A stretch of 64,000 nucleotides of DNA, taken from the sequence record NC_054915.1; one strand, written 5' to 3'. The DNA comes from Escherichia phage vB_EcoM_G8. The translations under genes were made by a program, and so were the position numbers. The notes under the pieces were generated by a model. It did no database searches. It saw only the letters and a program-made list of their open reading frames with translations, and was not told the origin of the DNA. Shown one piece after another: positions 32,356-42,856 of the stretch; position 1 is the stretch's first letter, and each line of letters opens with the position of its first letter.

Positions 32356-32604
32356 TTACTTCAGTGTTACCACAAAGTGACGAACTGCTTTTCGTGCAGC
32401 AGAAGCCAGAGGCTTAGCATACTTAAGTTCATCTTTTTCCTGAAGCTCAGCAGCTAATGCAGTTTGAGCAGGATTTAGATGTTTGAAATAACGCAGGATT
32501 TCAAGAGCTTCGGCTTCAACATCAATAGATGCGCCATAGTTTTCGTGACCATTATTCCATGCGTTTCGTTGCAGTTCAAGAGCGTGTTGTAATTGTTTAA
32601 TCAT
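32356..32604 (-). CDS. rIII: lysis inhibition accessory protein RIII
   Basis: 82 aa ORF immediately downstream of gene 31 in transcription direction, T4 rIII length and position. Confidence 0.75.
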   Translation of the reverse strand: MIKQLQHALELQRNAWNNGHENYGASIDVEAEALEILRYFKHLNPAQTALAAELQEKDELKYAKPLASAARKAVRHFVVTLK

Positions 32605-35242: not shown

Positions 35243-36443
<1,201 letters not shown>

Positions 36444-36447
<4 letters not shown>

Positions 36448-36674
36448 TTATTTTTCTCAACCAATGATTGAATATAATCATGCAGGTCTTTAGATGCTTT
36501 ACCCCATTTATTTTGATATTCATTTTTGAGATTAGCACGTGATTGAGCTAATAAAACATCATTAGTTGGAGGTAAAGATTCTAACCGCTGAATCTGGCGT
36601 CCATAAATCATTGCAGCCATCTCGGATTCATAAATCAATCCTTTGAGATGTTCAAATTGATGCCATGAAATCAT
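36444..36674 (-). CDS. pseT.2: hypothetical protein (pseT.2 position)
   Basis: 76 aa. Confidence 0.6.
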
Positions 36675-36970
36675 TTACATTTATCCTCTTTTAACTCTTG
36701 ACGATAATAACATATCATAGTTTTCTGGTCATGTACATATCGTTTTACATCATTAAGCCAAATACGAAATTCCTGGGAATCTTCAAATGGCATACCGACC
36801 CAAGCTTTACCATCGATAACTTTAACTTGCCAAGATAGTTTAGCTTCATCATATGACTTTATTTGTACAGGCCAATTAGGATGAACTGTTTCTTTCTTTA
36901 CTTCTAGAGGCTTTGTAGAACAACCAACTAGAAGACCAATAGATAATATTACTGCTGATAGTTTAATCAT
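36671..36970 (-). CDS. predicted small lipoprotein
   Basis: 99 aa; N-terminus MIKLSAVILSIGLLVGCSTK has signal peptide with lipobox LVGC. Confidence 0.65.
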   Translation of the reverse strand: MIKLSAVILSIGLLVGCSTKPLEVKKETVHPNWPVQIKSYDEAKLSWQVKVIDGKAWVGMPFEDSQEFRIWLNDVKRYVHDQKTMICYYRQELKEDKCK

Positions 36971-37320
36971 TTAGAAAGGTCCTGGATGTCTTCTGCGAAC
37001 TTGTTGAAGGAGTTGTTGATTTGTTTTTCAACCAATCCTGGCTTATGAGCCACCACATCCGCCTTCTTTGCGTCTTTGCGCAGTTTTTCATTTTCACGCT
37101 CAATAGCAGCAATTGCCTCACGATTTTTATTATTCATCGCATCAATATAATTATACTGAATTCGCAAATTATTTAATGCTAAGGCGTTTTCATTGGCCGT
37201 TTTTGTAATTTCTACAACAGACGTTTCTAATCTTTCAATTTTATTTTTTAAAATTAAAGAAGTTCCGCCTAATGCAATTACAATTAATAGCAAACCTGTT
37301 GTCGTATTACTTAATTGCAT
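36967..37320 (-). CDS. predicted single-pass membrane coiled-coil protein
   Basis: 117 aa; hydrophobic segment GLLLIVIALGGTSLIL then heptad-rich region; overlaps alc stop. Confidence 0.6.
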   Translation of the reverse strand: MQLSNTTTGLLLIVIALGGTSLILKNKIERLETSVVEITKTANENALALNNLRIQYNYIDAMNNKNREAIAAIERENEKLRKDAKKADVVAHKPGLVEKQINNSFNKFAEDIQDLSK

Positions 37321-37814
37321 AAAGTTTTAATAACCTCTATAATATCGTCTTGAGAAAGACCGTTAATTAAAATATGATGTTCAGCCGGAGATTTAGAAAT
37401 TTTAAAGCATGCCTCAACATCTTCTGCCATATCCGATGCACTACGATTTGGATTACTAATTCCAAGGCGGTGTTTTCCCGTTAAAGGATTAACGATAATA
37501 TAGCATTTACAGCTATTGATATGAACATTAGGTTGAGTCTGATTAATGAACACTTCACAATCATACTTAGCGAGTTGATTTTCTAAAAAGACTTTCATCT
37601 CCTCAACCGCATCAGGAAGCATATCACGGGCTTTCTCAAGACGACGATTTCGATATTCTTTAACGGTCGTTTTCCGCTTAACTTGCTTAGCTAAATCTTT
37701 CTTAAGATCAGTGATATATCCAACTCGACGATTTCCTTTGAATACAGAAATCCCATCTGTAGTATCACCGTATGCTTCAACGACCATTTCAGTAGTAATA
37801 AGCTGCAAATCCAT
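37311..37814 (-). CDS. alc: Alc transcription termination factor
   Basis: Second Met gives 167 aa (MDLQLITTEMV…); preceded by SD GAGGA. Confidence 0.85.
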   Translation of the reverse strand: MDLQLITTEMVVEAYGDTTDGISVFKGNRRVGYITDLKKDLAKQVKRKTTVKEYRNRRLEKARDMLPDAVEEMKVFLENQLAKYDCEVFINQTQPNVHINSCKCYIIVNPLTGKHRLGISNPNRSASDMAEDVEACFKISKSPAEHHILINGLSQDDIIEVIKTLCN

Positions 37815-37821
37815 CATAAAG

Positions 37822-37878: not shown

Positions 37879-39466
<1,588 letters not shown>

Positions 39467-39474
39467 AATAAAAT

Positions 39475-39488
39475 GGGCCTTGCGGCCC
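39475..39488 (-). terminator. hairpin between nrdB and denA
   Basis: Minus strand GGGCC-GCAA-GGCCC then ATTTTATT. Confidence 0.45.
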
Positions 39489-39493
39489 ACTCC

Positions 39494-39997
39494 TTAAAAG
39501 TATTTTTTAAAACTCATCATAACTTTATCATCAACATCATTATCAATCTGTGCAACAAGATAGGATGACAGTTCTACTTCTTGTGGCGCGGATTGAACAT
39601 TATCAGAATTAAGATATTCACGAATCCAAGGATATGGATGTTTAACCGGAGCATCGGTAATTGGGCATGGAAGACCACACTGTTTCATACGAGATACAGT
39701 TAAGTAATCAATAAAGCTCCACATGCTATTTGTATTTAATCCAGGAACATCGCCATCTTTAAATAAATGAACTGCCCAATCTTTTTCTTGGCGGTTAACT
39801 TCCATGAAAATATCAACTGCTTCTTGTTCACACTCTTGAGCAATTTTAACCCATTCATCACCATCAGTACCGGATTGAAGTTGACGAATAATATATTGAG
39901 TGCCTTTAAGGTGAAGCTGCTCATCACGTGCAATGAACTTCATAATCTTGGCATTACCTTCCATAATTTCCATGTTCTTATGGAAGTTAAAGGTACC
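39494..39997 (-). CDS. nrdB: ribonucleotide reductase small subunit NrdB, exon 2 (5' boundary approximate)
   Basis: Translation …NMEIMEGNAKIMKFIARDEQLHL… matches NrdB C-terminal half; boundary by alignment to E. coli NrdB spacing, +/- few nt. Confidence 0.8.
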   Translation of the reverse strand, partial: GTFNFHKNMEIMEGNAKIMKFIARDEQLHLKGTQYIIRQLQSGTDGDEWVKIAQECEQEAVDIFMEVNRQEKDWAVHLFKDGDVPGLNTNSMWSFIDYLTVSRMKQCGLPCPITDAPVKHPYPWIREYLNSDNVQSAPQEVELSSYLVAQIDNDVDDKVMMSFKKYF

Positions 39998-40592
39998 GTT
40001 ATGTTCGATTGAGCTCGCTAATTCTCAACCCGTTCTCTTATGAACTGCTACATATTACTATGCAGACCAGACTATATCACAATCCCAGAGGGATTCTCCC
40101 CATTTCGAGTCGCTTGACTCTACGTCCGAAGACTAGTCGTTGAACCTTGCTTTGCAATTGTCGCCGTGCCATCGTTTATATGTTGATGGTGATAAATCTT
40201 TCTTATCACAATATGGACAATTCAATTGAATTCTATTTGGATTTAATTTACATCTGTCATTATGTTTTAGATAAAATCCAGGACCTTTACCAATGTGACC
40301 ACAGAAATCACATGTGATTTCTTTTTGTGCAGGATGGGTCCCGTTCTTAACCATTTCTAATGTTTTTGCTGATGTTCTTTTCTTATGGTCTTCCATCAGA
40401 ATCTTTAGGTAGGTCCGTCAGCATCTATCCAAATTTTTCTATAGTTCAATTGTGCATCCTCTTAAAAGTATAATCATATTATACCAATTAAAGGTGCAAG
40501 CAAAACCTTGGCTGCTAGTTTTCCTATAAAGGACTTTCCAGCAATTAAAGGAGTTTTCGATAAACGTTACCGTTTAAAGGCGCATTTTACGC
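39998..40592 (-). mobile_element. group I intron in nrdB with truncated endonuclease ORF (boundaries approximate)
   Basis: nrdB frame interrupted after RFYVSF and resumes ~595 nt downstream; contains 87-aa Cys-rich ORF. Confidence 0.75.
40133..40396 (-). CDS. truncated intron-encoded endonuclease remnant (I-TevIII-like)
   Basis: 87 aa ORF inside nrdB intron; Cys-rich ITCDFCGHIGKG…NCPYCDKK, no complete catalytic domain. Confidence 0.6.
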   Translation of the reverse strand: MEDHKKRTSAKTLEMVKNGTHPAQKEITCDFCGHIGKGPGFYLKHNDRCKLNPNRIQLNCPYCDKKDLSPSTYKRWHGDNCKARFND

Positions 40593-41264
40593 AAAAGATA
40601 CATAAAAACGAATAGCTTCTAAGGCATTAATAACGTGCAAACAGAGGTAAAGAGATTTCATTAAAGCACGTTTAGCTTCGGCTTCTTGCTTAATAGCCCG
40701 GTTTAAACGAAAGTCGGCATCAGGAGATTCTTTAGCTAGTTCTACAAATTCTTTAGCATTTTCCCATTCACGGGTTTTAGTTAAAACATCATCATAATAG
40801 CGACCGATAGATTCAGCACGTTTCATAATAGCTTCATCTAATACAATCTCATCAAATACCTTTGACGGATCAGTATAAAGATTTCGCATGATATGAGTAT
40901 ATGAACGACTGTGAATAGTTTCACTAAAAGTCCATGTAGCAACCCATGTATCAAGGCTTGGGTCTGAAAGCAATGGCATAAGTACAGCAGACGGCGCACG
41001 ACCTTGAATACTATCAAGTAATGATTGATACTTCAGATTATTAGTAAAAATATTTTGTTGATACTGAGGAAGCTTATTAAACTGTGCAGCATCCATCATC
41101 AAGTTTACTTCTTCCGGACGCCAGAAAAACGAGAGCGAACGTTCAATAAGTTCTTCAAATACTCGATGCCGTTGAATATCATAACGCGCAATACCAAGAC
41201 CTGAACCAAAAAACATAGGTTCTTTTAAAACATCGACCTGTTTAGTATTAAAAACTGTACTCAT
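40593..41264 (-). CDS. nrdB: ribonucleotide reductase small subunit NrdB, exon 1 (3' boundary approximate)
   Basis: MSTVFNTKQVDVLKEPMFFGS…EAIRFYVSF then in-frame stop inside intron. Confidence 0.8.
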
Positions 41265-42856
41265 TATTTTGTCCTGTAAACTAAATTTCCACAGTCCCAG
41301 ATTCTTCTAAGACCATTTGCATAACAATTTTCTACTTCAGTTATTGTATCATCATAATTTTTAAGCTTGTTTTTAAGCTTATGTTTCATATAGCTTGAGC
41401 GGTGAAATACCTCTCCTTTATCGACGTACCAATAACATGGCTCAGAGATATGACTAAATTCCATGACAGAGTCATAAACATTTGATAATGTACTGCACCA
41501 TCTTCGATTGCCATAAGATAGACAATTAATTCCTTTTAATAATTTTGAGGCTCCTCCTACAACGCAAACCCCTAATTTTGAACACATCCTTAAAAGTTCA
41601 TCACCCGAGCTATATCTAGATTTACCGATAGAAATAATTTGAACTAACTCATTATTGTAATAAAGTCCTTTATACGTATGAGCTCCTGAGCAAAATCCTT
41701 GAAGATGATTCTTATTAATAAATTCTTTTGCCTCATCCTTATTAACAAAACGCGCTTTGCATTTTCGGGCTGGTATTCTTTCTGATAATCCTAATTTATG
41801 CTTTATAATGGATTTCCAGATCTCTCTTTTTGTATCATCAATCCATTCATTTTCGAAGATGTGAAGTAATTGAATTCCTTGTGCTTCACACATCTCTGTC
41901 TTCATCAAATGATAAGTTTCTTTAATTTTATCTGTTTCCTTTGACCCGCTAGAATGCCAATAAATTCCATCGTATTCTATAGCCAATTTTTTCTCAGGAA
42001 TGTAAATATCTAATTCATACGGAGGAATAATTTTTCTAGTTTCTACGCAATCAAATCCTAGATCTAAAATGAATTGCTCTATAGAACTTTGAGTATAATG
42101 AACGTCAATTAGTCCTTTGGATGAAAGAGCTCTATAAGCCGTCATCCGAGAACAATTTGCTAATTGTTGTAGTTCTTCTATAGAAATTTTGTAATTGATT
42201 TTATCTAGTATATCATGATTAATATGACCGTTATTTTTAATAGATTTTCCTATAGATGAATATAACGATGCCTTATATTCTTCAGTCCAATTTAATTTAG
42301 TCTTCTTAGATTTTTCGCGAGATTTTCTAGAATTCAGAATATCAACTGATTTACCGTTTTCTATAACTTTTCTCGCTTCTTTCACGCTTTCTAATTGTGA
42401 ATTATGCGTTACCCCATATCGTTCAATTAAAGTTTTTCTATTTTTATTTCTTGAAATTTTTTGATGAGTTGTTCCATATTTTTCTAAATAATTTTTGCGT
42501 TGAAGTTCAGACAAATATTTTTTATATTTTTCTTTTCCGCCAAAATTTGTATCACGGCTTTGAATTCTCTTATCCGCGAAAAATATCCCTGCGCAGGATT
42601 TACTACATGTTGCTGGAAATACACGTTTCTTTGCTGTTTTCAGAGAAATGAAATTTCCACAAACTGCACATTTTAGATCGTTAATGTCAATGCCTTCCAT
42701 AATTTGGAACACATTGAGCTTAAAATCTATTCCATCAGTTAGAAGAGCTTTATCTTCTTCTGTTAGTCTAGATTTAAGTTTTTCTTCTCCAAATGGAAGA
42801 AACTTTCCGTTTTTGTATATATTATCAAACATAGCGTTATTCTTAGTTAACCACAT
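41264..42856 (-). CDS. large multidomain nuclease-like protein (Cys cluster, NUMOD3-like repeats, HTH, Vsr/DUF559-like core, unknown C-terminal domain)
   Basis: 530 aa uninterrupted ORF, ATG 42856; stop overlaps nrdB ATG (TAATG); motifs CAVCG…CSKSC, KYGTTHQKIS / ERYGVTHNSQ, YELDIYIPEKKLAIEYDGIYWH. Confidence 0.8.
   Translation of the reverse strand: MWLTKNNAMFDNIYKNGKFLPFGEEKLKSRLTEEDKALLTDGIDFKLNVFQIMEGIDINDLKCAVCGNFISLKTAKKRVFPATCSKSCAGIFFADKRIQSRDTNFGGKEKYKKYLSELQRKNYLEKYGTTHQKISRNKNRKTLIERYGVTHNSQLESVKEARKVIENGKSVDILNSRKSREKSKKTKLNWTEEYKASLYSSIGKSIKNNGHINHDILDKINYKISIEELQQLANCSRMTAYRALSSKGLIDVHYTQSSIEQFILDLGFDCVETRKIIPPYELDIYIPEKKLAIEYDGIYWHSSGSKETDKIKETYHLMKTEMCEAQGIQLLHIFENEWIDDTKREIWKSIIKHKLGLSERIPARKCKARFVNKDEAKEFINKNHLQGFCSGAHTYKGLYYNNELVQIISIGKSRYSSGDELLRMCSKLGVCVVGGASKLLKGINCLSYGNRRWCSTLSNVYDSVMEFSHISEPCYWYVDKGEVFHRSSYMKHKLKNKLKNYDDTITEVENCYANGLRRIWDCGNLVYRTK

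Follow-up and report, generated by a model that had tools for sequence, protein, structure and literature searches.

The pseT.3/pseT.2 genes downstream of alc in Escherichia phage vB_EcoM_G8 almost certainly encode a T4-type two-component spanin

Two small genes directly downstream of alc in Escherichia phage vB_EcoM_G8 (NC_054915.1) almost certainly encode a T4-type two-component spanin, PseT.3/PseT.2, which would disrupt the outer membrane in the final step of lysis. This pair is already known: bioinformatics has identified it, genetics has tested it, and its annotation extends to hundreds of genomes. Similarity of sequence is what carries the spanin function over from the T4 genes to the alleles described here, and it is extensive. 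Throughout, the window denotes the whole stretch of this DNA that was analysed, 64,000 nucleotides in length, and all positions are given in its numbering (Table 1).

Both genes are open reading frames that start with ATG, and their coordinates and lengths are exactly those given in a preliminary description of this DNA. That description also had the two genes overlapping and following alc directly, as indeed they do: pseT.3 overlaps the alc stop by 10 nt, pseT.3 and pseT.2 share the 4 nt of an ATGA (within AAATGA), and the 3′-end of pseT.2 overlaps the next ORF in a second ATGA. On either side, alc is recognized by PF17527 (E 5e-91) and the polynucleotide kinase gene pseT by PF25109 (E 1e-60), and the local order alc, pseT.3, pseT.2, pseT.1, pseT is collinear with that of T4. 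The placement of the pair 'upstream of pseT' is true only loosely, because two further ORFs, pseT.1 and one of 100 aa, intervene before pseT. The 100-aa ORF belongs to phrog_2364, a family of unknown function, yielded no significant match to Pfam or PADLOC, and has a counterpart in phage Aplg8 that is annotated as similar to RB32ORF217c / RB69ORF231c; T4 is without it and shows a clean alignment gap of ~300 bp at this place, the size of this one 303-bp ORF.

Table 1. Positions, in the numbering of the window, of the spanin genes, of features of their products and of other genes mentioned in the text
Feature	Positions	Strand	Basis or remark
pseT.3, i-spanin (inner-membrane spanin subunit), 117 aa	36967..37320	-	ORF listing; T4 identity; phrog_739; T4 and Aplg8 annotation
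PseT.3 N-terminal transmembrane domain (TMD), residues 8-24 (TGLLLIVIALGGTSLIL)	37249..37299	-	peak hydropathy window; coordinates verified by translation
PseT.3 substitutions relative to T4, residues 2-36	37213-37317	-	TMD and juxtamembrane segment
PseT.3 predicted periplasmic helix alpha-1, residues 25-91, coiled-coil character	37048..37248	-	AlphaFold2 model; heptad score; Kongari et al.
PseT.3 C-terminal motif KPGLVEKQINNSF, residues 93-105, start of helix alpha-2	37006..37044	-	orthologue conservation; probable o-spanin contact region
pseT.2, o-spanin (outer-membrane lipoprotein subunit), 99-aa precursor, predicted 83-aa mature form	36671..36970	-	ORF listing; T4 identity; phrog_812
PseT.2 signal peptide, residues 1-16; lipobox LVGC, residues 14-17 (36920-36931)	36920..36970	-	regex match; coordinates verified
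PseT.2 C-terminal Cys pair, Cys87 (36710-36712) and Cys98 (36677-36679)	36677..36712	-	invariant in 10 orthologues; T4 mutants
alc	37311-37817		
pseT.1	36444-36674		76 aa, between pseT.2 and pseT
100-aa ORF	36145-36447	-	between pseT.1 and pseT
pseT	35243-36148		301-aa ORF
denA (endonuclease II)	39056-39490	-	ORF starts with GTG
nrdB, split	39494-41264	-	frames 40587-41264 and 39494-39973
87-aa ORF	40133-40396		in the nrdB gap
530-aa ORF	41264-42856	-	between nrdB and nrdA
82-aa ORF	32356-32604	-	

The preliminary description had held back from assigning the two genes to named T4 genes, and this assignment can now be made. In BLASTP, PseT.3 is identical to T4 NP_049837 at 107 of 117 positions (91%, E 1e-79) and PseT.2 to T4 NP_049836 at 98 of 99 (E 6e-75); the lone PseT.2 mismatch is an X arising from an ambiguous base (N) in the T4 record, so that every determined residue is the same. 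Each protein also matches its own 'Rz-like spanin' family over its full length (PseT.3, phrog_739, residues 1-117, E 3.2e-37; PseT.2, phrog_812, E 3.5e-43). The T4 reference genome (NC_000866) contains the collinear genes pseT.3 (117 aa) and pseT.2 (99 aa), each named 'Rz-like spanin', and the PseT.3 orthologues of T4 and Aplg8 are annotated as PseT.3 or Rz-like spanin. More widely, the 1.5 kb around the pair reaches 98.7% identity with Tequatrovirus BCH953P2 and 95-99% with 495 phage records, many of which label the genes 'spanin Rz' and 'outer membrane lipoprotein Rz1' or 'Rz-like spanin'; by tblastn, PseT.2 is at least 99% identical in 349 phage records and PseT.3 in 114. By these matches, the source phage is a T4-like Tequatrovirus with an ordinary copy of the T4 spanin pair.

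The copy in the window shares with T4 the lengths of both proteins, the ATGA overlap, the position after alc, the LVGC lipobox, Cys87 and Cys98, an i-spanin free of cysteine and a predicted periplasmic domain of two helices; it differs in ten amino-acid substitutions in PseT.3 and in the additional 100-aa ORF between pseT.1 and pseT. All ten substitutions lie in residues 2-36, whereas residues 37-117 of PseT.3 and the whole of PseT.2 are without any amino-acid change. This cluster could reflect a local patch of recombination or relaxed constraint on the TMD; that it reflects host-specific tuning is very unlikely. The two genes are, judging from the codon differences between pseT.2 and its T4 counterpart (6 synonymous and 0 non-synonymous) and from paired homologues in the same order in 10 phages, real and under constraint.

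The experimental basis for calling these proteins spanins comes from T4, whose PseT.3/PseT.2 is one of three paradigm two-component spanins (Kongari et al. 2018, PMC6139136). When both T4 genes are supplied on a plasmid, a lambda Rz-am/Rz1-am lysogen that is defective in lysis is complemented. In T4 PseT.2, C87S, C98S and the combination of the two each give a lysis defect, such that both cysteines are essential; T4 PseT.3 has no cysteine (PMC6139136). In addition, disulfide-linked dimers of T4 PseT.2 are seen only when PseT.3 is present, and the secondary structure given for T4 PseT.3 comprises two helices joined by a very short linker, with only alpha-1 prone to form a coiled coil (PMC6139136). 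The antibody peptides of that work (PMC6139136) occur verbatim, and at the same positions, in the proteins of the window: ERENEKLRKDAKKA at residues 74-87 of PseT.3 and WLNDVKRYVHDQKT at residues 71-84 of PseT.2.

PseT.3 of the window has a single strongly hydrophobic stretch (residues 8-24; mean Kyte-Doolittle value 2.3 over 17 residues) and zero cysteines. A single-sequence AlphaFold2 model of the protein (mean pLDDT 88.7) forms a continuous helix from residue 5 to 91, is interrupted at K93-P94-G95 and continues as a second helix from 94 to 116; within residues 11-80, the mean pLDDT is 93-98 per ten-residue block, and by a crude heptad score residues ~17-60 rank highest. This two-helix model joined at KPG agrees with the published description of the T4 protein (PMC6139136), and the earlier reading of the 117-aa protein as one hydrophobic helix followed by a coiled coil fits both. 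By analogy with its T4 counterpart, we infer a type II topology in the inner membrane, with the N-terminus in and the C-terminus out. The net charge flanking the TMD is 0 on both sides, which makes the positive-inside count uninformative; the topology therefore follows from homology and from complementation by the T4 genes rather than from a positive-inside signal.

PseT.2 begins with MIKLSAVILSIGLLVGC, in which the lipobox fits the regular-expression consensus [LVI][ASTVI][GAS]C and is followed at +2 by Ser rather than Asp. Cys17 is thus the predicted lipid-attachment residue, and the signal peptide and lipobox proposed in the preliminary description for the 99-aa protein are borne out and fit the published account, as does its reading of both products as envelope proteins. 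The protein has cysteines at 17, 87 and 98. Its single-sequence AlphaFold2 model is of low confidence (pLDDT 51) and offers hints only: residues 49-59 may form strands and 66-78 a helix, with further short strands near the C-terminus.

Comparison of the locus with eight further phage loci shows which of these features persist as the sequences diverge. These loci were taken from Mosigvirus F27, Kanagawavirus IME523, Gelderlandvirus STML-198, Jiaodavirus Mineola, Winklervirus LC53, Pseudotevenvirus RB16, Aeromonas phage Aeh1 and the T5-like Pectobacterium phage My1. T4 and 8/8 of the further phages have, immediately upstream of a lipoprotein gene, one whose product has an N-terminal TMD; adjacency and order are thus kept in 10/10 genomes, even where the flanking genes are different (RB16, Aeh1 and My1). 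An N-terminal hydrophobic stretch is present in all ten i-spanin orthologues, which outside T4 are only 17-45% identical overall to PseT.3 of the window in the 10-sequence alignment. Near the C-terminus of these proteins, however, the segment KPGLVEKQIN-SF is nearly invariant: across the 10 orthologues, K93, P94 and L96 do not vary and V97, E98, I101, N102 and S104 are conserved in at least 90%. In distant Klebsiella and Serratia phages, this is the only part of PseT.3 that tblastn detects. We suggest that it is probably the surface with which PseT.3 contacts PseT.2. On the o-spanin side, the only invariant residues among the 10 aligned sequences are M1, G16, C17, P34, D53, C87 and C98; among them are the cysteine of the lipobox and the pair found essential in T4. 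The persistence of lipobox, Cys pair and gene pairing outside the T-even group fits a core function in lysis.

A Pfam scan to E 0.1 and an NCBIfam scan found no domain in either protein, Pfam only sub-threshold coiled-coil noise, and PDB profile searches with the 10-sequence alignments of each protein found no solved relative; for PseT.3, these searches returned only generic coiled-coil proteins at E 0.01 or worse. Two candidate memberships were considered and rejected. No Rz/Rz1-type model of Pfam or NCBIfam matched, so the pair does not belong to the lambda Rz/Rz1 sequence family, and the P2 LysB/LysC family was rejected in turn, with PseT.3 reaching only 14.5 bits (E 0.032) against TIGR03495 LysB, the cutoff of which is 92.75. 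Since neither the Rz/Rz1 nor the LysB/LysC models match, it is functional equivalence, and not sequence homology, by which the mechanism is carried over.

That equivalence is to lambda. Like Rz/Rz1, PseT.3/PseT.2 would combine a type II inner-membrane protein that has a helical periplasmic domain with a small outer-membrane lipoprotein; both systems depend on homotypic disulfide links, and the T4 pair functionally replaces Rz/Rz1 (PMC6139136). Despite these similarities, there is no detectable sequence homology between the two pairs, and several characteristics are altered. [quoted passage not shown] Coiled-coil character is found in just one of the two PseT.3 helices, unlike in Rz; PseT.2 is larger than Rz1 and predicted to have a beta-alpha-beta arrangement, whereas Rz1 is unstructured and rich in proline; and in contrast to lambda, the cysteines of PseT.3/PseT.2 are found only in the o-spanin, where both are essential (PMC6139136). 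P2 LysB/LysC is also a two-component spanin, with the topology proposed for the present pair, but its genes have an overlapped architecture within a lysis cassette, and PseT.3 lies outside the LysB family. The unimolecular spanin gp11 of T1 shares with the present pair a role in disrupting the outer membrane during lysis and an N-terminal lipobox; there, however, the lipoprotein signal and a TMD at the C-terminus belong to a single polypeptide, whereas here the two anchors are on two proteins.

The T4 late-promoter consensus (TATAAATA) has no coding-strand site between 32751 and 51203. A scan of 34.5-40 kb for sigma-70 promoters and terminators found 19 sites, compared with 22.8 expected from shuffled sequence; since such sites are no commoner than in shuffled sequence, we assign no promoter. 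An Rfam scan of the whole window gave no match, and short words from the sequences of holin T and endolysin E had no match in the window.

Several other features of the window were recorded in passing. The denA gene, collinear with T4 denA, encodes a GIY-YIG domain (PF01541, E 5e-6). Farther along, nrdB is split into two frames ~613 bp apart, and the gap contains the 87-aa ORF, which corresponds to the group I intron of T4 nrdB and the truncated I-TevIII endonuclease there and which in related records is called a 'defective intron-associated endonuclease'; an Rfam scan at the gathering threshold reported no group I intron in this gap. The 530-aa ORF lies where T4 has nrdB.1 and mobE and is the counterpart of the gene for the homing endonuclease Hef in phage U5 (AY262133, 96.9% DNA identity); its only Pfam matches, weak and sub-threshold, are to MTES_1575 and DUF559, families of Vsr-like endonucleases. 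On the other side of the pair and ~4 kb from it, the 82-aa ORF contains the words KQLQHAL and LEILRYF of T4 RIII, an accessory protein of lysis inhibition, and we take it to be rIII.

The function offered for the pair in the preliminary description was superinfection exclusion or the timing of lysis, by which an early device in the envelope would block the entry of DNA from a secondary phage or modulate the holin clock. Some aspects of the locus would suit this: both products are small envelope proteins, their genes are set among genes of early or middle type for nucleotide metabolism and host shutoff and not beside those for holin and endolysin, the coding strand has no late-promoter consensus upstream, and the presumed lysis-inhibition gene rIII is not far away. 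We nevertheless consider it extremely unlikely. Superinfection exclusion in T4 is the known province of imm and sp. Timing and inhibition of lysis in T4 are attributed to T, the holin, together with two antiholins, RI and RIII (PMC6832632; PMC8385771), and spanins act after holin and endolysin. A scan against the PADLOC defence models at E up to 0.01 gave no match to either protein of the pair. Most directly, the T4 orthologues, which are 91-99% identical, act as spanins in a complementation assay (PMC6139136), and the lipobox, the Cys pair and the pairing of i-spanin with o-spanin are kept in phages outside the T-even group. Both halves of the earlier functional guess are therefore set aside in favour of the spanin assignment.

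A further reading leaves the spanin assignment in place. The genes lie in an early/middle block and have no coding-strand late-promoter consensus, and therefore spanin complexes might bridge the envelope well before lysis; they might then have a second role, such as stiffening the envelope against lysis-from-without or influencing secondary infection. Such a pre-lysis role seems to us very unlikely. The chance that the two ORFs are functionally unrelated neighbours with an incidental pairing, one for a lipoprotein and the other for a membrane protein of different function (for example, an anchor for a replication or assembly factor), is close to nil. That there is no Pfam domain on either protein, and no solved structure of any relative, would leave room for it; against this stand the conserved adjacency and order in all ten genomes despite differing flanks, the translational coupling through the ATGA overlap, and the T4 results, in which PseT.2 dimers need PseT.3 and the complementing plasmid carried both genes (PMC6139136).

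As spanins, the two proteins would work as follows. The N-terminal helix of PseT.3 would fix the protein in the cytoplasmic membrane, from which a helical domain of ~90 residues would extend into the periplasm. PseT.2 would be exported and lipid-modified at Cys17; lacking an Asp at +2, it would be delivered to the outer membrane's inner leaflet. [quoted passage not shown] Within such a complex, Cys87 and Cys98 of PseT.2 would pass from an intramolecular disulfide to two intermolecular disulfides between PseT.2 subunits. The intact peptidoglycan mesh would keep the complexes inert until holin T lets endolysin E destroy the wall; a conformational change of the spanin would then fuse the inner and outer membranes, removing the last barrier and allowing the progeny out. 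We infer the fusion step, the restraining effect of peptidoglycan and the precise surface of contact by analogy with lambda Rz/Rz1, for which membrane-bridging complexes restrained by the peptidoglycan mesh are understood to fuse the membranes after endolysin has cleared that mesh away. In other phages, spanin mutants arrest as spherical cells at millimolar Mg2+. The T4 genes are reportedly also treated as a two-component spanin in the work of Summer et al. from 2007.

For the field in general, the gap that remains around PseT.3/PseT.2-family spanins is the lack of a solved structure, and their fusion mechanism is still borrowed from lambda. The pair in the window is of little discovery value in itself. 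It is a textbook component of T4 lysis, and the changes in residues 2-36 of PseT.3, together with the extra 100-aa ORF, leave its conserved functional features untouched.
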